Below are positions 2,284 to 27,076 of a stretch of 27,076 nt of DNA, piece after piece (positions within the stretch are counted from its first letter, which is position 1; each line of letters starts with the position of its first letter). Position numbers and translations under genes: made by a program. Origin of the DNA: Candidatus Iainarchaeum sp. (lineage in GTDB: Archaea; Iainarchaeota; Iainarchaeia; Iainarchaeales; JAZDDZ01); assembly GCA_043809245.1 (NCBI GenBank), contig JAZDDZ010000053.1, positions 1-27,076 on the forward strand. The letters run 5' to 3'. The notes below the pieces were generated by a model that ran no database searches, was not told the origin of the DNA, and was given only the letters and a program-made list of their open reading frames with translations.

Positions 2284-2880
2284 ATGATGGTTGAAGACAA
2301 CGCAATAGTCCTTGATTTCATGCCGCGCGGAAAAGGCTCTAGCTTCAAGCCCGAACCGCTTGCACAGGTGCTCGGCACCTCTCACTTCACTTTGTTGGAG
2401 GTTGTTCCAAAAGAGGGAGTTGAATTAAAGGCATTTGACAGTGTTTACATCGGAAAAGAGGAAAGGGACAAAATAGACCACATAAAGCGCAGGATTAACT
2501 TCAAGGACCTTACATCCAATTCTGTTGCCGAAATAGAGAAAGCCATTGAAAAAATAATCCGCGAACAGGAACAGAAATTCGTTGAATTCTTCAACAACGC
2601 GCAGCCGATTTCAATCAAAAGGCACAAGCTCGAGCTTTTGCCTGGCCTGGGAAAAAAACATCTGATGAGCATTCTCTCTGAAAGGGAGAAAGAGCCCTTC
2701 ACTTCCTTCAAGGACATTCAGGCGCGCGTCCACTTAATGCCTGACACAGTCAAAACAATTGCCAAGCGCGTGACGGAAGAGCTTGAGGGAGGCGGAGACA
2801 AGCACTTCATTTTTGCAAGGCCTCCTGCACAGGAACACGATGACTTTAGGCCTAGAAGGGAATTCAGCAGAGGGGAATGA
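2284..2880 (+). CDS. DUF655 putative RNA-binding protein
   Basis: AIVLDFMP.G, FTLLE, FFN.AQPISIKRH.LELLPGLGKK; canonical rpl21e-rpo4-DUF655-rsmA synteny. Confidence 0.92.
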   Translation: MMVEDNAIVLDFMPRGKGSSFKPEPLAQVLGTSHFTLLEVVPKEGVELKAFDSVYIGKEERDKIDHIKRRINFKDLTSNSVAEIEKAIEKIIREQEQKFVEFFNNAQPISIKRHKLELLPGLGKKHLMSILSEREKEPFTSFKDIQARVHLMPDTVKTIAKRVTEELEGGGDKHFIFARPPAQEHDDFRPRREFSRGE

Positions 2881-2961
2881 AATGGTTTCAGTTATTGGTG
2901 GCAAAGGATTTGCTTACCTTTAATAATCTTTTTACAGTAAATTTTGGCAGGAGGTCATGCA

Positions 2962-3510
2962 ATGCTTGAATGGATTGTTTTAATTGTAATCGCAGTAATA
3001 GCCGTGGCATTGATTGCCATTTACAACGGCTTGATTTCTTCAAGGAACCGCGTAAAAAACGCATGGAGCCAGATAGACGTTGAACTCAAGAGAAGGTTTG
3101 ACTTGATTCCAAACCTTGTTGAGACAGTTAAGGGCTACATGAAGCACGAGCGCGGAACATTTGAGGAAGTCACAAAGCTCAGGTCACAGTTGATGAACGC
3201 TTCAGGAAGAAAAGAACAGGGCCAGATAAGCGACATGCTTTCAGGGGCTTTGAAATCACTTTTTGCGGTGGCGGAAAACTACCCTGAACTGAAGGCAAAC
3301 GAGAACTTCAAAATGCTGCAGGAAGAGCTTTCCGGAACCGAAAACAAAATAGCGTATTCAAGGAAATTCTACAACGATTCAGTGTACATGTACAACACAT
3401 CAGTGCAGTCATTCCCAACAAACGTTATTGCGGGAATGTTCGGCTTCAAGGAATCAGAGTTCTTCGGAATAGCCGAATCAGAGAAAGGGCCTGTAAAAGT
3501 GCAGTTTTAA
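2962..3510 (+). CDS. lemA: LemA family protein
   Basis: N-terminal TM helix, [38 protein letters not shown]; GGAGG RBS before ATG 2962. Confidence 0.95.
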
Positions 3511-3549
3511 GCTGCGCTTTTTTTATTCTTTATTTAACGGTAGAGTCAT

Positions 3550-4443
3550 ATGAATGTTTACCAGCAAATATCCTCGAATAAAACAAAGTCAATCCTATTG
3601 TTTTCCTTTTTCTTTCTAGCCATTCTTTTCCTTGGATGGGTTATCGGGGAAATCACGGGCTTTGGCGCAGGGGCGCTTGTAATTGCGTTCATTCTCGCGG
3701 TCCTTCTTTCCTTTTTCTCCTATTATTATTCCGACAGCATTGTCCTCAAGATTTCCCGGGCAAGGGAAGTTAAACGCGAGGAATTCCCTTTCTTGTTTGA
3801 CATTGTTCAGGCAGTTGCAATGGGTGCAGGGGTTCCGAAACCACGCCTTTACGTGATAAATGACACTGCCCCAAACGCTTTTGCAACTGGAAGAAACCCA
3901 CAGCACTCGGTTATCTGCGTTACAACCGGCTTGCTTCAAAAACTTGACCGCAACGAATTGGAGGCAGTCATTGCCCACGAAATGTCGCACATTAAAAACT
4001 ATGACATGCTTGTAATGACAGTCTCCGTGGTGCTTGTCGGCGTAATTGTCTTATTGAGCGACTTTATTTTGAGAAGCTTTCTTTGGGGAAGGCGAGGCGG
4101 CAACAGCAGGGAAAGCGGCAGCCTTGGGCTTGTTTTGATAGCCATAGGCATTCTTTTTGCGGTTCTTTCTCCATTCATTGCAACAATCATTCGCCTGGCG
4201 ATTTCACGCAAAAGGGAGTTTTTGGCTGACGCTGACTCCGCCTTGATGACGCATAACCCTGAAGCGCTTGCCTCGGCTCTTTTAAAAATCTCCAATGACA
4301 AGGAGCCATTGGAGGCAGCAAACAAGGCAACCGCGCACCTTTACATCATCAACCCCCTTAAAGAACACGCCAGCTTTATGAACAATTTGTTCAGCACACA
4401 CCCCCCAATTGAGGCAAGGGTGAAGGCGTTAAGGGGAATGTAA
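3550..4443 (+). CDS. htpX: HtpX (M48) membrane zinc metalloprotease
   Basis: PNAFATG, AHEMSH (HEXXH), SRKREFLAD and FSTHPP motifs. Confidence 0.95.
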   Translation: MNVYQQISSNKTKSILLFSFFFLAILFLGWVIGEITGFGAGALVIAFILAVLLSFFSYYYSDSIVLKISRAREVKREEFPFLFDIVQAVAMGAGVPKPRLYVINDTAPNAFATGRNPQHSVICVTTGLLQKLDRNELEAVIAHEMSHIKNYDMLVMTVSVVLVGVIVLLSDFILRSFLWGRRGGNSRESGSLGLVLIAIGILFAVLSPFIATIIRLAISRKREFLADADSALMTHNPEALASALLKISNDKEPLEAANKATAHLYIINPLKEHASFMNNLFSTHPPIEARVKALRGM

Positions 4444-4471
4444 TTAATTACTTTGCGTTTCTTTTTCTTTA

Positions 4472-5305
4472 ATGCAGGGCGCACTTTTCTCCGAATTGAA
4501 CAATCAGATGGTCAAATACCATTTCAAGCCCTCGCATAAATTCGCGCAGAACTTCATTGTGAATGAAAAGCTGCTGCAGGAAATCGTCAGCGCCGCGCAG
4601 TTAACCAAAAAGGATAGGGTGCTTGAAATCGGCGCTGGAACCGGCTTTCTCACGCGCGAGCTTTTGAAGCACGCGGGAAAAATTATTGCGGTTGAAAAAG
4701 ACGCTTTGCTTTGCGGTTTGCTTGAAGAGGAATTCAAGGGCGAAAAAAAACTTGAAATCATTAAGGGAAATTTTTTGTTTGAAAAGCTGCCGGAATTCAA
4801 CAAAGTTGTCTCCCTCCCGCCTTATTCAATTTCCTCCGGCATCATGCTTCGCTTGTTCGAGCTTGGCTTTGAAAAAGCAGTTCTTGTTTTCCAGCGTGAA
4901 TTCGTTGAAAAATTGGTTGCAGAGCCGGGTTTTGTGGAATACAACGCGTTATCCGTCCTGACAACTTACTTCACTGAACAGAAAATCCTGGAGAAAAGCA
5001 TTTCCCCTAACTCTTTCTATCCAAAGCCGAATTCTTTTTCATCGCTTGTTGTGCTTGACGCAAAAAAAAGGTTCGGCTCAGTTAACGATGAATTGTTTGC
5101 GGATTTTTTGAAGCAATTGTTCCGCCTGAAGAACAAGAACCTTTCAAAGGCCTTGGCGAAATGCTTTCCTTTTTGGAAAAAAAACCTGAAAATCGGAAAA
5201 GAAGAGTTCCTTGAAACAGCCAATTCGCTTGAACTGGCAAAGGAAAAGGTCAACAGGCTTGAATGCAGAGAATTCCTTGAGGTCTTTAAACAAATTCTTC
5301 AATGA
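4472..5305 (+). CDS. rsmA: 16S rRNA adenine dimethyltransferase RsmA/KsgA (atypical motif IV)
   Basis: QNF, VLEIGAGTGFLT, AVEKD, FQREF and FYPKP motifs; synteny with DUF655. Confidence 0.9.
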   Translation: MQGALFSELNNQMVKYHFKPSHKFAQNFIVNEKLLQEIVSAAQLTKKDRVLEIGAGTGFLTRELLKHAGKIIAVEKDALLCGLLEEEFKGEKKLEIIKGNFLFEKLPEFNKVVSLPPYSISSGIMLRLFELGFEKAVLVFQREFVEKLVAEPGFVEYNALSVLTTYFTEQKILEKSISPNSFYPKPNSFSSLVVLDAKKRFGSVNDELFADFLKQLFRLKNKNLSKALAKCFPFWKKNLKIGKEEFLETANSLELAKEKVNRLECREFLEVFKQILQ

Positions 5306-6833
5306 TTACTTCCTCAAAGTCAATTACCCTTGATTTGAGCGCCTGTTTTTCCGCCAAATCAAGCTTTCTGGTGTTCTCAGAGTAAATCTCGTAAAGTATC
5401 TGGCCTTCCCTGATGCTTTCCCCTGCAAGCACCTTTAAGAGAACGCCCGCGCGCTTGTCAGCGGGAGCCCCGGAAAGGCGCGCGATTTCAATTACTTTTT
5501 TGACGTTTATTTTCTTTATTTCGCCCGCGCTTTTTGCCTTTACTTCCTTTTTGAACCTGGCAAGCCTAACGTCCTCGGAGCGCAGAATCTTTCCGTCCTG
5601 TGCCTTGATTATTTCCTTCATTTTTTCAAGAGCCATTCCCGAGGTCAGGATTTCTTTTGCCAGCCTGTGGCCTTCACCTTTCTTTGACCTGCCGACAAGC
5701 TCGAATAATGCGCCCGCAAGCCCGCAGCTTTTTTCCGCAAGCGCGTTCCATTTTTTTCCCTCAAGCGTCTCCATTACCTCTTTTGCCTCAAGCGCTGGCC
5801 CGAAAGCCATTCCAACAGGCTCGTCGCCGTCAGTCAAAACCGCTTCAACCTTTATGCCGACTCTTTTGCCGACTTCAATGAAGTCCCGGGCCATTTCCTC
5901 GGCGGTTTCCCTTGACTTTATTTTTACCTCAGGCCCCACAGGCAAATCAATCACCAAAAACTTTGCGCCAACCGAAGCCTTTTTTGACATCACTGACGCT
6001 ATAACCTGGCCTTTTGGGTCCAGTGAAAGCGGGTGCTCGAGCTTTATCATTTTGTCATCCACTGGCGCTAGGTCAACTGCGCCGCCCCAGCTTATCACTC
6101 CTCCAACCTTGTTTGTTATGTCCCTTATCCTTTCAAGTGAAAGGGAAACGTTTGCAAGCACTTCCATTGAATCAGCGGTTCCAGCAGCGCTTGTAATGCT
6201 CCTGCTTGAAGTTTTGGGTATGAGGTAGCCTGCGGCGGCAATTATCGGCACAACAATCATTGTAGTCCTTCCATTTGTTCCGCCAACAGAATGCTTGTCT
6301 AAAATGAATTCCTTTTCAAACTTCAACTGCCTTCCATCGGCTATAAGCGCGTTTGTCATTGCCACTATTTCCTCCAAGTCAAAGCCATTGATGTAAACGG
6401 ATGACATGAACGCGGAAGCCTCAATGTCGCTTAGCCTGTCGTTTGCAATGTCGTCAACTATTGCCTTTAATTCCCCGGCGGTTAATTTCTGCTTGTCCAT
6501 TTTTTTCTTAATGAATGCAACGCTTTCCGGCCTTTCAACCGCTTTGACCTCAACTTCCTGGCCGTTTTTGACTGCAAGAATTTTTTGCGCTTCCTCAAAC
6601 AAGCCGACCTCGTTTTCCTCAACCATTGAAGTTGTTAGGTCAACTACAACAACCAATGCCTTCCCTGTTTTCTGGTTTCTCACCTGAACCCTTTCAAGCG
6701 CAAAAATCCCAAGCTCTTTTGCGTCAATCTCGTTCATTAAAGCGATTAGCTTGCCTGAATAAATGTTGAAGGTTTTTACCTTCATCTGCTGCGAATAACT
6801 CGAAGTGCTATCCCCATTATCCATAAAAACCAT
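5286..6833 (-). CDS. deoA: AMP phosphorylase (archaeal NMP phosphorylase, thymidine phosphorylase family)
   Basis: DKHSVGG, PKTSSRSITSAAGTADSMEVLA, WGGAVDLAPVDD and ASVMSKK motifs, plus the N-terminal extension typical of AMP phosphorylase. Start uncertain (6833, 6824 or 6785). Confidence 0.92.
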   Translation of the reverse strand: MVFMDNGDSTSSYSQQMKVKTFNIYSGKLIALMNEIDAKELGIFALERVQVRNQKTGKALVVVVDLTTSMVEENEVGLFEEAQKILAVKNGQEVEVKAVERPESVAFIKKKMDKQKLTAGELKAIVDDIANDRLSDIEASAFMSSVYINGFDLEEIVAMTNALIADGRQLKFEKEFILDKHSVGGTNGRTTMIVVPIIAAAGYLIPKTSSRSITSAAGTADSMEVLANVSLSLERIRDITNKVGGVISWGGAVDLAPVDDKMIKLEHPLSLDPKGQVIASVMSKKASVGAKFLVIDLPVGPEVKIKSRETAEEMARDFIEVGKRVGIKVEAVLTDGDEPVGMAFGPALEAKEVMETLEGKKWNALAEKSCGLAGALFELVGRSKKGEGHRLAKEILTSGMALEKMKEIIKAQDGKILRSEDVRLARFKKEVKAKSAGEIKKINVKKVIEIARLSGAPADKRAGVLLKVLAGESIREGQILYEIYSENTRKLDLAEKQALKSRVIDFEEVIIEEFV

Positions 6834-6869
6834 ACAAAATGAAACGGAAAGGGATTAAAAGCTTTTAGC

Positions 6870-7577
6870 TCAAAGCAGCGCTTTCGCGAATTCTTCCGCT
6901 GCTGCCTTCATGTCCTGCGCGCCGTAGATTCCCCTGCCGATTATTGCATGCCAGTGGCTTCCCGCTGCCTTCGCCGAATCAGTTATTTTTCCGCCCTGTG
7001 CAATCAGGCCGGGGGAGTAAAGCACTGGTTTCACGCCTTTTTTTTCAAGCAGTTCCCTGTAATAGGAAATTTTTTCAGGCTTGTTTCCCGGGACAACAAA
7101 ATCTGTTACGCCGTTTTCGGCTGCAAGGGAATAAATTTTTTCAGGTGCGCCCTCAGCAATCGAGCCCCCGTCCTTTTGCAGGAAGCCCTCGTGCGTCATT
7201 TCCCCCCCGACAATCACGCCCAATCCCTTGTTTTTGCATGCCTCAATCCACGCTTTCTCGGTTTTCGGGCCTGTGAATGGAAACAAAATCACTGCGTCAA
7301 CCCCGCTTTCCTTGCAGGAAGCCGCAAACCTTTCCCCCATTTCGGGAATGTCGTTTCCTGCCTTTTGGTGGTCGTAAATGACTGGCAGGTCGCTTAAGCC
7401 CTTAACAGTTGAAACAACTTCCCGCAAACCGAATTTAATCACGAGTTCAAAGCCAACCTTGTATGCCCCGATTCCTTTCACTCCACTGGTTGCTTCAACC
7501 AATTCCGCCAACTTTTCAAGCGAATCAACATCGCAAGCGGGAACAACGCTCCTGTCCAGTGAAATTATTTTGCCCAA
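6870..7577 (-). CDS. pyrF: Orotidine-5'-phosphate decarboxylase (variant motif)
   Basis: ACD, YKVG, DHQKAGNDIP, SPGLIAQGG and IIGRGIY motifs; last gene of the pyr cluster. Confidence 0.88.
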   Translation of the reverse strand: MGKIISLDRSVVPACDVDSLEKLAELVEATSGVKGIGAYKVGFELVIKFGLREVVSTVKGLSDLPVIYDHQKAGNDIPEMGERFAASCKESGVDAVILFPFTGPKTEKAWIEACKNKGLGVIVGGEMTHEGFLQKDGGSIAEGAPEKIYSLAAENGVTDFVVPGNKPEKISYYRELLEKKGVKPVLYSPGLIAQGGKITDSAKAAGSHWHAIIGRGIYGAQDMKAAAEEFAKALL

Positions 7578-18586: not shown

Positions 18587-19027
18587 ATGATTTTCACGAT
18601 AAGGACAACTGTTGGCCAGGAAAGCCTAGTCGTAGACATACTCGGAAACAAGATTCGAAAAGAGGACTTGAATATTTTCTCCCTCTCAGTTATCCCGGGT
18701 TTGAAGGGATACATTCTCATTGAAGCGGACAATGAAATGACTGTAAGGAGGGGCATTGCAAACACCTCTCACGTGAAAGGAAAAGGAATAGTCGGCGGAG
18801 CCGTGAAAATTGAAGAGCTCTCCAGCCTGCTTGAAGCAAAGCCGTTAATGCAGTCCATTAAAGCAGACATGAAAGTTGAATTAATCGCGGGCCCGTTCAA
18901 AGGCGAAAAAGCAAAAGTCTTAAGGGTCAACGACACAAAAGAAGAAGTTACGGTTGAACTGCTTGAAGCGGCTGTTAAGATTCCGGTTACAATTAAAGCG
19001 GAGCACATAAGGATAATAAAGGAATGA
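18587..19027 (+). CDS. spt5: Transcription elongation factor Spt5 (NusG)
   Basis: RTTVGQE, LKGYILIEA, KOW motif VELIAGPFKGEKAKV, VTVELLEA..IPVT. Confidence 0.96.
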   Translation: MIFTIRTTVGQESLVVDILGNKIRKEDLNIFSLSVIPGLKGYILIEADNEMTVRRGIANTSHVKGKGIVGGAVKIEELSSLLEAKPLMQSIKADMKVELIAGPFKGEKAKVLRVNDTKEEVTVELLEAAVKIPVTIKAEHIRIIKE

Positions 19028-19032
19028 GTTGA

Positions 19033-19410
19033 ATGGCTAAAGGATCACGATTTGGGAAAGGGCCAAGAGGGTTTAGACAAAATCCCGCAACAGTGGCAAA
19101 TAATGCAAATCAAGAAGCTAGACTTGCCGGCCGCCGTCTAGAAATAATTAACTTGGCTTTAAAGCGAGGTATTGTCAAAAAAAATAAGGAGGCCGAAATA
19201 GTTTCCTTGTGCCAAAGAATTATAGCTGACCAAAAAGTTAATGCTTCTGTTGAAAGGCTTCATAAATCTCCCCGTAGTCTTGACCTGAGTAATATTAATG
19301 CGCTTATTGCACTAAATGAAAAAGCAAGGCAATTTCTTGAAAGCAAAGGAATAAATGTTGGCAAAACCGCTGAAACTGGCAACATTACTTTCACGGGGGG
19401 CAGTGCATGA
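19033..19410 (+). CDS. Orphan basic protein inserted between spt5 and rpl11
   Basis: 125-aa ORF, 5 nt after the spt5 stop, with ATGA overlap with rpl11; no recognisable motif. Confidence 0.65.
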   Translation: MAKGSRFGKGPRGFRQNPATVANNANQEARLAGRRLEIINLALKRGIVKKNKEAEIVSLCQRIIADQKVNASVERLHKSPRSLDLSNINALIALNEKARQFLESKGINVGKTAETGNITFTGGSA

Positions 19411-19880
19411 CTGAAATTTCTGTTCTGGTTGAAGGCGGAAAGGCAACAGCTGGCGCTCCATTGGGGCCGGCTTTGGGTCCTTTGGGTGTCAACATTGTTG
19501 AAGTCGTTAACCAGATTAACGCTAAGACAAAGGATTTTTCGGGAATGAAGGTTCCGGTAACTGTTTCCGTTGACTCCAAGTCAAAGTCTTTTGAGGTTAT
19601 TGTGGGCAGCCCCCCGGTTAGTGCGCTCATTAAAAAGGAATTGAATGTGAAGAGCGGCGCAAAAAACCCAAAGTTGGAGGTTGTTGGAGACCTTTCCATG
19701 GAGCAGGTCAAAAAAATCGCTGAAGCAAAAATGGATGGAATGATTTCCTACAAGCTGAAAAGCGCTGCACGCGAAGTCATTGGCGCCTGCAATTCAATGG
19801 GCGTCACAATTGACGGAAAACACGCAAAAGAAGTGCAAAAAGAAATCGCGGAAGGAAAATACGATTCTGTGCTCGGATAA
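19407..19880 (+). CDS. rpl11: 50S ribosomal protein L11
   Basis: VEGGKATAGAPLGPALGPLG, INAKT..F.GMKVPV, G.C.SMGV motifs. Confidence 0.97.
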   Translation: MTEISVLVEGGKATAGAPLGPALGPLGVNIVEVVNQINAKTKDFSGMKVPVTVSVDSKSKSFEVIVGSPPVSALIKKELNVKSGAKNPKLEVVGDLSMEQVKKIAEAKMDGMISYKLKSAAREVIGACNSMGVTIDGKHAKEVQKEIAEGKYDSVLG

Positions 19881-19883
19881 ACG

Positions 19884-20132
19884 CTATTTGTAGATATTTT
19901 TTCTGTGCCCGATTTTAATGATTAATATAATCAATTTTCCCCTATCGATTTCTGCGAGGATTCTGTAATCGCCAACCCGCAACTTGTAGGCGGTTTCCCC
20001 CACAAGCCGTTCAAAATAGTTTTCGGGCCTTATTCTGGCGCGTTCTATCACGGCAATGATTCTCTCTTGCAAAGGTTTCTCAAGCTTTTTTAGCTCCCGC
20101 GAAGCCTTGCCTGAAAAAATTACTTCAAACAT
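19884..20132 (-). CDS. relE: RelE/ParE-family toxin
   Basis: YKLRVGDYRIL...IGHRKNIY motif. Confidence 0.92.
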   Translation of the reverse strand: MFEVIFSGKASRELKKLEKPLQERIIAVIERARIRPENYFERLVGETAYKLRVGDYRILAEIDRGKLIILIIKIGHRKNIYK

Positions 20133-20351
20133 TTACAAACCGAGCTCTTTTTTTACCTGTGCCAAGGTCTTGAAGTTGCCTTCGCGGATTTCCTTTCTTG
20201 CCTCTTCAAGGTCTCTTTTGGTTTCATCGGAAAGCTCTTTTGTGTCTTCCAGCAAATCCCAGATTATGCTTTCATAGCTTTCCTTACTGCTTAATTTCCT
20301 TGCGGAAAGCTCTTTCCTTAATTCATGGCTGACTTGAATTGTTGTTTCCAT
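20133..20351 (-). CDS. Antitoxin partner of RelE (RHH-like N-terminus)
   Basis: METTIQVS...ESYESIIWDLLE...EARKEIREG..KTL.QVKKELGL; abuts relE; start at 20351 fits the TATA spacing. Confidence 0.85.
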   Translation of the reverse strand: METTIQVSHELRKELSARKLSSKESYESIIWDLLEDTKELSDETKRDLEEARKEIREGNFKTLAQVKKELGL

Positions 20352-20359
20352 AGTAATAA

Positions 20360-20388
20360 TATAGCCCGCTATACTATAAAAACCTTGC
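20360..20388 (-). promoter_or_regulatory. relBE promoter (TTTTTATA) with operator-like palindrome TATAGC-CC-GCTATA
   Basis: TATA at 20375-20382; palindrome at 20360-20373 between the TATA box and the ATG. Confidence 0.6.
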
Positions 20389-20401: not shown

Positions 20402-20446
20402 AAGCTGAAAAGCACTTAAGGGAAATACGATTCGGTTCTGGGCTGA
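20402..20446 (+). pseudogene. Collapsed remnant of rpl11 (internal segment fused in frame to a recoded 3' end)
   Basis: Reads KLKST*GKYDSVLG*. 20402-20416 matches 19752-19766 at 14/15 nt; 20420-20446 matches 19854-19880 at 21/27 nt, and all six differences are silent. Confidence 0.9.
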
Positions 20447-20461
20447 GAACCCCGGTAAACT

Positions 20462-20916
20462 TTATTTTTCTCTTTTTTGTGAAGCAATAATTTTTTTCCA
20501 GTCCTGCCAAATTATTTCAATGTCACGAAAAGCACTTATAATGCGCTGGACAGCTAGTTGATGCGCATCGGGGTTAGTTGAGGCCCTTTCAAAATTGCCT
20601 GCGTATTTTTCTGAGAAAATCTGCCCGGTTTCTTCCATGAAAGACCTGAAAATTTTTTGTGCAGAAGAATGCAACTTGGCAATTTGTTCAGGGCTTTTTT
20701 TTCCTAGCATAATTCGCTCAAAAATCCGCTCAAAGGTATTGACAATTCGCGGGGGCTTTTGTAAATGCTTTTTCAGAACTGCAATTTGCTCGTTTAATGG
20801 TCTTGCAAGAAATGAATCAGCGTAGTTCTCTTTATGCTTTGAAAAATTTGCCTCATACGAATCTAGCCTTGCCTGGGGAATTATCCTTCTCTCTCTCTCT
20901 TTGGGGGTTCAGGCAT
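20462..20916 (-). pseudogene. Orphan gene frameshifted in an (AG)6 tract
   Basis: ATG 20916 gives MPEPPKREREG*. Removing one AG unit (tract 20888-20900) yields a 150-aa ORF MPEPPKRERRIIPQARLDSYE... continuous with the 20462-20710 ORF. Confidence 0.65.
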
Positions 20917-20998
20917 ACAATCGGATAGAGAATGGCATAAAACAGTATTTATTGATTTTGGCTGATTCATTGGTTAAGATTCTGTTTTTTTGCCCGCA

Positions 20999-21011
20999 GA
21001 AACTTTAAATA
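20999..21011 (+). promoter_or_regulatory. BRE-TATA promoter GAAAC-TTTAAATA of the MNT gene
   Basis: Near-consensus archaeal TATA box about 35 nt before ATG 21046, with an AGGTGG RBS in between. Confidence 0.55.
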
Positions 21012-21045
21012 ACGCTACAGCCATACAATTTATAGGTGGAATTAA

Positions 21046-21360
21046 ATGAAGCACGGCTTAACGCCTAACACAATTATCGGGGAACTTGAAAGCCGAAAAG
21101 AAGAGTTAGCAGTATATGGAGTCAAGCGCATTGGCTTGTTCGGATCTTTTTTGAAGGGCAGCGGCAGGAAGGAAAGTGACTTGGACTTTCTTGTTTTATT
21201 TGATGCTTCTACTTTCGATAAGTACTTTGAACTTAAATTCTTGCTTGAAAAATTGTTTCACAGGAAAGTCGATTTGGTTCTTGAAGACAGCCTTAAGCCG
21301 GCTGTTGAATACGTGAAAAAAGAGGCTCTTTATGCCAAGGCAAATTTTATATCAGCTTAA
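21046..21360 (+). CDS. Minimal nucleotidyltransferase (MNT, MntA-type antitoxin)
   Basis: IGLFGSF...ESDLDFLV...RKVDLV motifs (GS-x10-DxD, third D). Confidence 0.92.
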   Translation: MKHGLTPNTIIGELESRKEELAVYGVKRIGLFGSFLKGSGRKESDLDFLVLFDASTFDKYFELKFLLEKLFHRKVDLVLEDSLKPAVEYVKKEALYAKANFISA

Positions 21361-21398
21361 CTGATCTGTGGCTTTGAGGAAATAGGGGTGTGTTTTCA

Positions 21399-22001
21399 AT
21401 GGCTGATGCTAATTTTCCGGTTGTTGATATTTCGGTATTGAAATTATCTGATGTAACTATTTGTTTTTCACTTAATTTTGATTGTGGCTTGAAGGACTTG
21501 AATGATTTTCTTGCTGAAGACGCGTTAAGGCAACAAAAGGAATCTGTGAACGTTACATTTCTATGGGTTTCAAGGAAAACCCGAGAATTGCTCGGCTACA
21601 TCACGTTATGCAATGATTCAATTCATTTATTTGGAGAGAAAAAAGAGGAAATGAAAACAATCGGCATTTCTTACAAGGCACTCCCCGCATTGAAGGTTTG
21701 CAGGATGGCAGTCAGCAACAAGTTTGCGGGCAGGGGGCTTGGGACTAAAATGATTGCTTTTGCTGTAAAAGTTGTTTTGGAAATCAATGAAATGTCGGGC
21801 TGTAGGTTTTTGACTTTGGAGGCTAAAAACGATGAAACGCTGCCTGAAAAAAAGAAGCCGGTGCATTTTTACAAAAAACTCGGTTTTTCTTTGCTAAAAG
21901 AAAGAAAGCAGAACGCATCTTATTTTCCAATGTACAAAGACCTTAAACCATTGATTAATGAATTCATTGGGCTTGAAGCGAAAAAAGCCTTTGGTTCTTA
22001 G
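21399..22001 (+). CDS. GNAT acetyltransferase (TacT/AtaT toxin-like)
   Basis: FDCG..DLNDFL, GYITL, PALKVCRMAV, acetyl-CoA loop GRGLG, FYKKLGF. Confidence 0.88.
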   Translation: MADANFPVVDISVLKLSDVTICFSLNFDCGLKDLNDFLAEDALRQQKESVNVTFLWVSRKTRELLGYITLCNDSIHLFGEKKEEMKTIGISYKALPALKVCRMAVSNKFAGRGLGTKMIAFAVKVVLEINEMSGCRFLTLEAKNDETLPEKKKPVHFYKKLGFSLLKERKQNASYFPMYKDLKPLINEFIGLEAKKAFGS

Positions 22002-22128
22002 CAATAACCCCTAAAATGAGGCGGTCTGTTTTGCCTGGCTTCGCTGAATCGTTTTTTTTCATTTTCTCCAAAAAAGCCATGGCTTCTTTGCCGACAAGCG
22101 TTGGGGTTGCCCTGATTGGTTTCGCCAT
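21964..22128 (-). CDS. 54-aa protein convergent with the GNAT gene, putative antitoxin (absent from the ORF track)
   Basis: MAKPIRATPTLVGKEAMAFLEKMKKNDSAKPGKTDRLILGVIAKNQRLFSLQAQ*; TTTTTAAA box upstream; overlaps the GNAT 3' end by 38 nt. Confidence 0.7.
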   Translation of the reverse strand: MAKPIRATPTLVGKEAMAFLEKMKKNDSAKPGKTDRLILGVIAKNQRLFSLQAQ

Positions 22129-22276
22129 AAAAACACTTTCCTAAACAATATTTTTCTTCTAACTCTTTAAAAAGGGCATCCCTTTTAAAACCTTTAGTGA
22201 AAGGAGAATTATATAGGATTTAACCGGTTTTTAACCGTGTGTACTAACCCCTTTGGGTGTTAGGAGGTCTTTGAAA

Positions 22277-23101
22277 GTGAATAAGGCGAGTGTTCTCGGT
22301 GCCTTGAAGGCAATGCGTGATTCATCTAAACCAAGGAATTTCACGCAGTCAGTTGATTTGGCGCTCAACTTCAAGGGAATTGACTTCAAAAAGGCGGACA
22401 AGAGAGTAGACGTTGACGTTGTTTTGCCGCATTCAACAGGCAAGCAGGTTGCGTCAAAGGCCTTGGTTTTCGTTAAGGACAAGAATTTCGCTGAGCAATT
22501 GAAGGGAAAGGCCTCAAAGATTGTTTTAGAGCAGGACATTTCAAAGATTTCCAGAAAGGAAATGGACGGCTTGTTGGCTGAGTACTCTGTTTTTTTGGCT
22601 GAAGGCCCAGCAATGCTTACAGTTGCAAAGGTTTTCGGGCAGCAATTGGCGCCAAAGGGAAGGATGCCAAAGCTCATCCAGCCATCCGTTGAATCATTTG
22701 ATGCCTCGGTTGAAAAATTCGGCGGCGCAATAAAGGTTTCAAACAAGAAAGGAAAATTCATGCCAGCGGTCCATGTCCGCATTGGAAACGAAAAAATGCC
22801 CGACGAACAATTGGCGGAAAACTTTTTAGCGGTATTCAACTCGGTTGTCCACAGCCTTGAGTCAAGGGAGCAGAACCTTAAATCAGCTTACGTTAAGCTT
22901 ACAATGGGGCCTGCATTCGAGGTAAGCGACAAAGCTGCGGCAAAGGAAAAAAAGGACAAAAGGGCTGTGACAAAAAAACAGGCAAAGGAAGCCAAAAAAG
23001 AAGATGCTGTTGAAGAAAAGAAAAAAGCGCAGGCAGCAAAGGAAGATAAAAAAGAAGCGGAAGAGGAAAACGGAAAAGAAAAAGGGGCTGAGTTGGAATG
23101 A
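22277..23101 (+). CDS. rpl1: 50S ribosomal protein L1 with Lys/Glu-rich C-terminal tail
   Basis: RNFTQSVDL, LPH, LAPKGRMP, HVRIG and YVKLTMGP motifs; GGAGGT RBS before GTG 22277. Confidence 0.95.
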   Translation: MNKASVLGALKAMRDSSKPRNFTQSVDLALNFKGIDFKKADKRVDVDVVLPHSTGKQVASKALVFVKDKNFAEQLKGKASKIVLEQDISKISRKEMDGLLAEYSVFLAEGPAMLTVAKVFGQQLAPKGRMPKLIQPSVESFDASVEKFGGAIKVSNKKGKFMPAVHVRIGNEKMPDEQLAENFLAVFNSVVHSLESREQNLKSAYVKLTMGPAFEVSDKAAAKEKKDKRAVTKKQAKEAKKEDAVEEKKKAQAAKEDKKEAEEENGKEKGAELE

Positions 23102-26937: not shown

Positions 26938-27076
26938 GTAAGTGCTAACCGCTTATGGCTTTTTTGAGGGTTGGGTAGAGGGGTTTGCCTTGTTGTTTCC
27001 ATGTGGCGAACATGGAAGTGATTGTTTCCATTGTTCGTGCGCCGGTTTCGCGGCGTAGTCCGCCAATGATTTTTCT
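26938..27076 (-). mobile_element. Right end of an IS66-family element
   Basis: Terminus GTAAGTGCTAACCG begins at 26938 (IS66 terminal repeats start GTAA) and overlaps the transposase stop codon. Confidence 0.75.
26945..27076 (-). CDS. IS66-family transposase, C-terminal fragment (truncated by window edge)
   Basis: RKIIGGLRRETGARTMETITSMFATWKQQGKPLYPTLKKAISG* resembles the IS66 RK..GG.RS..GA......S...T...QG pattern. Confidence 0.8.
   Translation of the reverse strand, partial: RKIIGGLRRETGARTMETITSMFATWKQQGKPLYPTLKKAISG

Follow-up and report, generated by a model that had tools for sequence, protein, structure and literature searches.

A recoded remnant of the rpl11 3′ end behind a predicted toxin-antitoxin pair in a Candidatus Iainarchaeum contig, and ten look-alikes in four genomes

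The contig of Candidatus Iainarchaeum sp. described here (JAZDDZ010000053.1, or C53; at its full length of 27,076 nt it is the window of this analysis) belongs to a source genome (G000) of 1.48 Mb in 55 contigs, the sole member of its family in a sample of 196 genomes from its order. It contains an intact rpl11 gene for ribosomal protein L11, a predicted type II toxin-antitoxin pair of the RelE/ParE family (relBE) that converges on it, and behind this pair a second copy of the last eight codons and stop of rpl11. The features concerned are as follows:

19407..19880, plus strand: rpl11 (ribosomal protein L11), intact, 157 amino acids (Pfam Ribosomal_L11_N, E=4e-23; Ribosomal_L11, E=4e-22)
19752..19763, plus strand: KLKS codons AAG CTG AAA AGC in live rpl11, 102 nt upstream of the live tail
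19852..19880, plus strand: live rpl11 tail, left copy of direct repeat 1
19884..20132, minus strand: ParE/RelE-family toxin gene, 82 amino acids, its stop 3 nt from the rpl11 stop and convergent with rpl11
20133..20351, minus strand: antitoxin-like gene, 72 amino acids, abutting the start of the toxin gene
20360..20373, no strand assigned: palindrome TATAGC-CC-GCTATA just upstream of the antitoxin start
20402..20413, plus strand: KLKS-like 12-mer of the same sequence as 19752-19763; ACT TAA lies between it and the orphaned tail, whose frame it shares
20418..20446, plus strand: orphaned rpl11 tail, right copy of direct repeat 1, outside any open frame

The live gene ends GGA AAA TAC GAT TCT GTG CTC GGA TAA (19854-19880) and the downstream copy reads GGG AAA TAC GAT TCG GTT CTG GGC TGA (20420-20446), 566 nt further along the same strand; both specify GKYDSVLG followed by a stop. 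The copies are identical at 21 of 27 bases, and the six differences comprise five synonymous third-position changes and the TAA/TGA pair, such that the duplicate with exclusively silent differences described in an initial annotation of this DNA is borne out base by base. Identity extends two bases 5′ of the copy (AAGG, from 19852 and 20418), and the longest identical run is 11 nt (AAATACGATTC). The codon before the orphaned tail is an in-frame TAA where live rpl11 has GAA, and because this stop precedes it the orphaned tail is untranslated. The locus thus has an untranslated, same-orientation fragment of the rpl11 3′ end downstream of the gene, as expected of C-terminal displacement, and the live and orphaned ends are separated by cargo: the 0.54 kb between the tails holds only the two small open reading frames (ORFs) of relBE (19884-20351).

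The same annotation had placed an in-frame KLKS segment from about 100 nt upstream in rpl11 ahead of the orphaned tail, and the identical 12-mer at 102 nt confirms it. The 12-mer occurs eight times in the genome, and a match to rpl11 of 12 nt or longer is present in 0.3% of 40-nt segments drawn at random from the genome (P ~0.003); as part of an rpl11 remnant it is suggestive, not proven, and is weaker evidence than the tail repeat. The comparison of the tails with related genomes proposed at the outset returned them in G000 only: a degenerate pattern for GKYDSVLG plus stop has two matches there and none in the 195 other genomes of the order. When the last 120 nt of rpl11 are aligned locally to the downstream DNA the score is z = 7.5, compared with at most 3.8 at the loci of 27 relatives, and no such rpl11 remnant is found at any of 29 relatives' loci.

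The toxin matches the full length of the Pfam ParE_toxin profile (positions 1-89 of 89; E=2.5e-11, 44.4 bits with a cut-off of 23), reaches 20 bits with NCBIfam RelE_StbE, which is below the cut-off of 27.9, and bears the signature of the RelE/ParE fold family. The antitoxin-like ORF has no Pfam or NCBIfam family match, and a similar 72-residue ORF is located directly upstream of a RelE homologue in another genome (G032, locus L051). The designation of the pair as relBE is a prediction from sequence, and the palindrome ahead of it could be a TATA box or an operator.

The orphaned tail is followed by a second insert and then by rpl1:

20456..20471, plus strand: TAAACTTTATTTTTCT, left copy of direct repeat 2, separated from the orphaned stop by 9 nt
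20462..22128, no strand assigned: second inserted block, 1.7 kb, with an 82-residue ORF, a nucleotidyltransferase, a GNAT protein and a 54-residue ORF
within the second block, minus strand: ORF of 82 amino acids
21046-21360, plus strand: MntA-like nucleotidyltransferase
21390-22001, plus strand: GNAT acetyltransferase
within the second block, before rpl1, minus strand: ORF of 54 amino acids
22142..22157, plus strand: right copy of direct repeat 2, TAAACAATATTTTTCT
22183..22252, plus strand: promoter-like TTTTAAAACCTTTAG and rpl1 leader, downstream of the right copy of repeat 2
22253..23101, plus strand: rpl1 (ribosomal protein L1; Pfam Ribosomal_L1, E=8.5e-39), followed by rpl10

The remainder of the island lies between the copies of direct repeat 2 (14/16 identity; P = 0.003-0.005 by comparison with intergenic pieces and shuffled sequences), the left one of which is similar to the beginning of the spacer between rpl11 and rpl1 in relatives. 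The order Spt5-L11-L1-L10 is conserved in 29 relatives, with a distance from rpl11 to rpl1 of ~100-150 nt in most and mostly without an intervening gene. The spacer following the orphaned tail reads GAACCCCGG-TAAAC, and the TTTTAAAACCTTTAG element and leader are similar to the promoter and leader that directly follow rpl11 in relatives (14 spacers compared); by this resemblance TTTTAAAACCTTTAG would serve as a promoter, and the true start of rpl1 is probably a little downstream of 22253. Removal of both bracketed inserts leaves a spacer of ~120 nt, like those of the relatives. The sequence after the orphaned stop is spacer-like, and the orphaned tail therefore sits where the original rpl11 end would. 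The MntA-like nucleotidyltransferase has no adjoining HEPN partner in a Pfam scan of the window.

A different toxin-antitoxin pair occupies the equivalent position in another genome (G037, locus L020), where hicB and hicA are located 76-518 nt after rpl11, directly downstream; hicAB is present at this locus and a tail remnant was not found. The 3′ flank of rpl11 has taken up toxin-antitoxin genes more than once.

Displaced gene ends of this type recur in G000. For 1,556 crude gene calls, a nucleotide scan of the terminal 24 nt against the 3 kb downstream (same strand, up to 4 mismatches) gave nine matches, compared with two for interior segments, none for the reverse strand, none for gene starts searched upstream and four for gene ends searched upstream. 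A peptide scan of the C-terminal eight residues and stop, extended 4 kb downstream with up to 2 mismatches, gave ten matches compared with controls of 3, 0 and 2 (reversed-tail 2, reverse-strand 0). After inspection, six true remnants were retained, that of rpl11 and five more gene tails (loci L067-L072):

C53: rpl11 remnant, with relBE as cargo
C49:13196-13222/13904-13930: GMP synthase (guaA) remnant, 708 nt downstream, with two small ORFs as cargo
C54:66598-66618/68370-68390: Glu/Gln-tRNA synthetase (gltX) remnant, 1772 nt downstream, with MNT, an uncharacterised ORF, an antitoxin-like ORF and MazF as cargo
C7:1392-1463/2209-2280: CoaBC remnant of 72 nt, with a small ORF and a split PIN_2 gene as cargo
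C47: SIMPL gene remnant, with a PIN_2 gene as cargo; the remnant comes with a 55-nt terminator at 100% identity
C18: remnant of a gene for 164 amino acids, with only a 43-nt hairpin between the copies, then a PIN and an AbrB-like gene

These remnants are 6-26 codons long and five of the six have cargo between the copies. Four of the cargoes contain toxin-antitoxin families with scores above the Pfam threshold, and the cargo at GMP synthase does not. Of the five remnants other than that of rpl11, four have toxin-antitoxin-like cargo between the copies. Four other peptide-scan and five nucleotide-scan matches were excluded as paralogue tails, tandem duplications or low complexity. The candidates rejected in G000 and elsewhere comprise tails common to two full-length neighbouring genes (C9, C23 and G016 1090945-1091727), tandem duplications (C47:77626 and G016 303387-304634) and low-complexity or likely chance matches (two on C8, C7:56959, L051, G016 918836 and G016 1149112). 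Some of the paralogue tails, which are not remnants (G016, oriented 1090945-1091989; G000 C9 25902-27973 and C23, with full-length neighbours), are themselves recoded or identical: one reads VPDMVGGC with six silent differences, and one is an identical 27-nt tail on two genes flanking a KaiC-like gene.

The pattern extends to other genomes, including one in a single 1.24-Mb contig (G016; 1.2 Mb scanned) and one in two contigs of ~1.25 Mb (G015; 793 kb scanned). The nucleotide scan gave five matches in G016 (controls 0, 0 and 0) and three in G015 (controls 1, 0 and 1), such that repeats of a gene end downstream of the gene exceed controls in three genomes. Remnants outside G000 include:

G016, L122 ~5040-5740: CoaBC remnant; the cargo is a weakly RelE-like pair encoded on the other strand, arranged as at rpl11
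G016, L135 ~5960-6990: remnant of a gene for 719 amino acids, with a UPF0175 antitoxin pair inside a ~100-nt repeat that spans the stop
G015, L238 10817-11934: remnant of a winged helix-turn-helix gene behind a NucS_C nuclease gene, with four silent differences and one non-silent difference in eight codons
G013, L004 1413-1471: recoded Spt5 tail, 11 nt after the live stop, with AGG>CGC keeping the arginine through two base changes

Across the class the repeats range from 21 to ~100 nt, differ in sequence from locus to locus and may include non-coding DNA after the stop. Among 109 RelE loci outside G000 (29 from the order and 80 from wider genome contigs) there is one convincing case of a flanking tail repeat (L178) and one repeat array (L170). 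In the former, from a Ruminobacter metagenome-assembled genome (MAG; oriented 2670-4030), a gene for 423 amino acids is followed by convergent relE-relB and then by a diverged ~105-nt copy of the gene's tail and terminator; this copy now ends an ORF of 100 amino acids, has many non-synonymous differences and is left out of the class count. The latter, from a Firmicutes MAG, was rejected as a gene-tail remnant, its repeat being a 60-nt array. At this locus (oriented 2750-4500) repeats of ~60 nt flank relBE and Phd/Doc-like pairs in series, in the manner of an integron-like cassette array.

The differences within remnants are silent far more often than a dead copy would allow. The six G000 remnants have 17 synonymous and 5 non-synonymous codon differences, with 3, 2 and 20 base differences at codon positions 1, 2 and 3, and the 11 remnants of the four genomes have 29 and 10. 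Under a drift model in which the copies are identical at birth, the live copy changes only silently and the dead copy drifts, ~35% synonymous differences are expected; the 29:10 ratio departs from this with P = 5e-7, or 1e-5 with the rpl11 case removed, and the five other G000 remnants, all of which are recovered by the codon-blind nucleotide scan, give 12 to 4 (P = 1e-3). At rpl11 itself, a dead copy with half of the 5-in-8 silent divergence would show no change at the 16 first and second positions of the eight codons with a probability of ~0.69^16 = 0.003. Three of the ten non-synonymous differences, all in G000, are located at the outer edge of a repeat. A trend towards G/C at third positions of the G000 remnants was dropped as it is reversed in the G015 case. 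As the differences are silent far beyond the drift of a dead copy, the two rpl11 tails are best regarded as alleles that were both functional, and the sequences favour a history in which each was selected for the same peptide before the two came together. The initial proposal that both tails evolved as functional rpl11 ends, and did not arise by local duplication and decay, is thus favoured by the rpl11 site and by the class as a whole; its corollary that one copy came from another organism is likewise favoured by the silent differences, although a donor was not found and this part of the proposal is reached indirectly.

We consider it somewhat more probable than its negation (roughly 55%) that C-terminal displacement by one-sided recombination brought in relBE from another lineage together with an isofunctional rpl11 tail, leaving the other tail orphaned. 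DNA from that lineage, with a synonymously recoded rpl11 end beside relBE, would have recombined through rpl11 homology on one side only, either by a single crossover with a circular intermediate or by homology-facilitated illegitimate recombination. One tail would then close live rpl11 and be followed by the cassette, beyond which the second tail would adjoin the original rpl11-rpl1 spacer. Toxin-antitoxin systems are addictive, and this property might help so rare an event to persist. The repeats vary from locus to locus, there is no recombinase on the contig and no inverted repeats are seen at cargo ends within the 25 longest pairs, and for these reasons homology-driven one-sided recombination is preferred to a site-specific enzyme or a transposase. 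We infer the separate lineages of the two tails, the identity of the native tail and the recombination route; the spacer leans towards the orphaned tail being native, and codon usage leans weakly the same way. Remnants with little cargo (G013, and C18 of G000) fit recombination that ended at the border of homology, and the bracketed cassettes fit the circle route.

A number of observations weigh against displacement by a foreign tail. The initial annotation envisaged a donor with rpl11 beside this relBE, and none turned up: rpl11 is next to RelE at none of the 109 RelE loci. Among 5.8 billion proteins the best RelE match is 72% identical and the best L11 match 73%, the closest named L11 proteins (from Diapherotrites- and Micrarchaeota-labelled assemblies) being at most 73% identical, and a metagenome scan with L11 gave four loci, all at no more than 67%. 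The G+C content at third codon positions (GC3) of relBE is 0.47-0.49, compared with 0.487 +/- 0.065 for the genome, and shows no foreign mark. The longest mismatch-free stretch common to the tails is 11 bases, a scant basis for homologous recombination if the crossover did not occur further upstream. Most RelE loci have no repeat: one of five in G000 does, and one convincingly of the 109 elsewhere. A breakpoint within rpl11, which the initial annotation placed at 19752-19766, receives no support from tests that have no power to detect one, as the identities of the N- and C-terminal parts of L11 to 119 homologues give r = -0.07 with all values at ~60-75%, and the GC3 shift along rpl11 is at the 19th percentile. 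Codon usage of the live versus orphaned tails has a log-likelihood of -0.99 for rpl11 and mixed signs at other loci, and is uninformative. The G016 and G015 cases initially came from the peptide scan, which is biased towards silent differences, but were recovered by the nucleotide scan as well, and the contig is known from assembly alone.

The closest competitor is a target duplication by insertion, in which the tails were identical when relBE entered and diverged later. Near-exact repeats do occur in the class, with the 55-nt non-coding part at C47 at 100% and repeats of 27/27 at distances of 44 and 931 nt in G016; repeat 2 of the island is located in non-coding DNA, and the failure to find a donor at the RelE loci also counts in its favour. 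However, the differences are too often silent for a drifting dead copy (~0.003 at the rpl11 site), repeats of 21 to ~100 nt fit no fixed duplication of the transposase type, and the 25 longest pairs include no inverted repeat at the ends of the cargo, so we regard such a duplication as unlikely. A second alternative is that an element bringing a surrogate gene end integrated site-specifically, in the manner of e14 or phage 21 at icd, with the integrase lost or acting in trans and the tails representing attL and attR. Integration at icd duplicates the 3′ end and keeps ORF length, as related in the relevant part of Bobay et al. (2013; PMC3603311), and the genome has six tyrosine recombinase genes (PF00589). 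None of the six is on C53, however, the 0.54-kb insert holds relBE only and the longest identical core is 11 nt; moreover, the sequence and length of the repeats differ per locus, so that one recombinase cannot serve all, and integration of this kind seems quite unlikely. A tandem duplication of rpl11 within this lineage, with both copies functional during silent divergence and the second then destroyed, would also give silent-only differences, and the KLKS 12-mer hints at a once-longer remnant. The process would need to be repeated at six or more genes in 1.48 Mb, leaving only 6-26 codons each time and cargo in five of six cases, and rpl11 gives a single match in 37 of 40 relatives searched and none in 3; we judge it very improbable.

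The remaining candidates concern artefact, coincidence and known enzymatic systems. A misassembly that joined two strain variants of the rpl11 end is conceivable for a metagenome-type assembly of 55 contigs known from the contigs alone. The 11 consecutive identical bases are too few to mislead a k-mer assembler at the usual k, the junction ACTTAA-GGG is absent both from the cassette and from an intact rpl11, the island occurs only once in the genome, and the same architecture occurs in the single-contig G016 and the two-contig G015; because the shared run is short, the island unique and the architecture present in near-closed genomes, a misassembly has very little to recommend it. Chance resemblance, for which the shortness of the stretch (27 nt) might speak, is effectively refuted: all eight residues and the stop recur 566 nt away, in frame and on the same strand, the 195 other genomes have no match, the alignment score stands at z = 7.5, and the peptide scan returned 10 matches with controls of 2 and 0. 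A transposon was rejected on the range of repeat lengths (21 to ~100 nt), the lack of cargo-end inverted repeats among the 25 longest pairs and the lack of a transposase ORF in the insert. A diversity-generating retroelement was rejected as the downstream copy has G, G, T, G, C and G at the six differing sites, never A, and all differences are silent, the opposite of diversification; no reverse-transcriptase search was made. An integron cassette was rejected as there is no tyrosine recombinase on the contig and the bracketing repeats are the rpl11 tail; attC folding was left unassessed.

The genes upstream of the island, and further observations on the locus and contig, are as follows. Two genes are located immediately to the left of rpl11:

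18587-19027: Spt5, the gene upstream of rpl11
19033-19410, plus strand: ORF of 125 amino acids between Spt5 and rpl11, overlapping the rpl11 start by 4 nt

The 125-residue ORF has no Pfam or NCBIfam family match, and its GC3 is low, at 0.28 (genome mean 0.49); in most of the 29 relatives Spt5 directly adjoins rpl11. Many L11 orthologues of the order (loci L004, L005, L007, L011, L014, L015 and L020, and further protein matches) have long, low-complexity C-terminal extensions rich in K, E, A and P, and reach 200-300 amino acids in total. The ends of the window (~1-120 and 26940-27076) contain ORF tails that are common to 6-13 G000 contigs and found at many contig ends; these look like multi-copy insertion elements that broke the assembly.

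The orphaned rpl11 tail is a scar and not a machine, and its interest lies in the recurrent pattern. Chromosomal toxin-antitoxin modules are patchy in distribution and clearly mobile, usually without transposases or integrases, and how they move is an old open question. The rpl11 locus and its ten look-alikes in four genomes provide a concrete, testable route for them, namely one-sided recombination in a conserved gene with the displaced tail as the scar. A broader proposal, which we put forward tentatively and regard as doubtful at present, is that small cassettes, toxin-antitoxin and others, spread without mobility genes in small-genome archaea and perhaps more widely by using the conserved 3′ tails of housekeeping genes as homology arms; a cassette between two tails would loop out as a circle with one tail and enter the same gene of another lineage, and recoded tails would be the footprints. 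In addition, the remnants point indirectly to recombination between diverged lineages of DPANN-type archaea, a group in which little is known of gene flow. The scan is simple, with the last eight codons and stop searched downstream; applied to all genomes it could provide both dates and a tally of such events, and it picks out short pseudo-ends that are overlooked by annotation pipelines.

Several known systems resemble parts of this pattern. In rhs genes, homologous recombination with circular intermediates that leaves arrays of dissociated tips has been proposed in the account of Jackson et al. (2009; PMC2935791), and for effector-immunity modules of the type VI secretion system (T6SS) homology-facilitated illegitimate recombination has been proposed in that of Kirchberger et al. 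(2017; PMC5361080); that the mechanism is established for rhs tips and these modules counts in favour of displacement at rpl11. As these systems and contact-dependent inhibition (CDI) are portrayed in the portions of the two reports that deal with C-terminal displacement (PMC2935791, PMC5361080), an incoming 3′ end with its cargo replaces the resident end, which is left downstream as a silent tip in the same orientation, and successive events build arrays; the rpl11 island likewise has two bracketed inserts. The differences from the systems so portrayed are that their new tip is a different toxin domain, whereas here the same eight ribosomal-protein residues are restored; that their cargo is an immunity gene, whereas here it is a type II toxin-antitoxin pair; and that here the remnants are 6-26 codons and the host is a small-genome archaeon.

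The e14 element and phage 21 in Escherichia coli icd (Wang 1997, cited in the section of Bobay et al. 2013 on this site; PMC3603311) share with rpl11 the duplicated 3′ end of a housekeeping gene and the unchanged ORF length, and differ, on that description, in having an integrase, a prophage of 15 kb or more and a defined att core. At the rpl11 locus there is no integrase in or near the insert, which is 0.54 kb with an 11-nt core. The two icd ends, too, differ mainly at synonymous sites.

Homology-facilitated illegitimate recombination was reportedly described in the laboratory in naturally transformable bacteria by de Vries and Wackernagel and by Prudhomme et al., both in 2002, and we know of no demonstration in archaea of this kind. 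As proposed for the rpl11 locus, homology anchors the incoming DNA on one side only, the illegitimate joint falls close to the border of homology and foreign DNA is trapped. Integron cassettes, archaeal integrons included, are said to carry toxin-antitoxin genes (Ghaly and colleagues, in 2022), and resemble the inserts described here in being small (0.5-1.8 kb), promoter-bearing or promoterless, and bracketed by repeats. They differ in that their repeats are attC hairpin sites, with intI and attI, whereas here the repeat is the host gene's tail and differs at each locus. What is new here, on the best-supported reading of indirect evidence, is the displacement of housekeeping gene tails by isofunctional tails accompanied by toxin-antitoxin or nuclease cargo in small-genome archaea, with no mobility genes.

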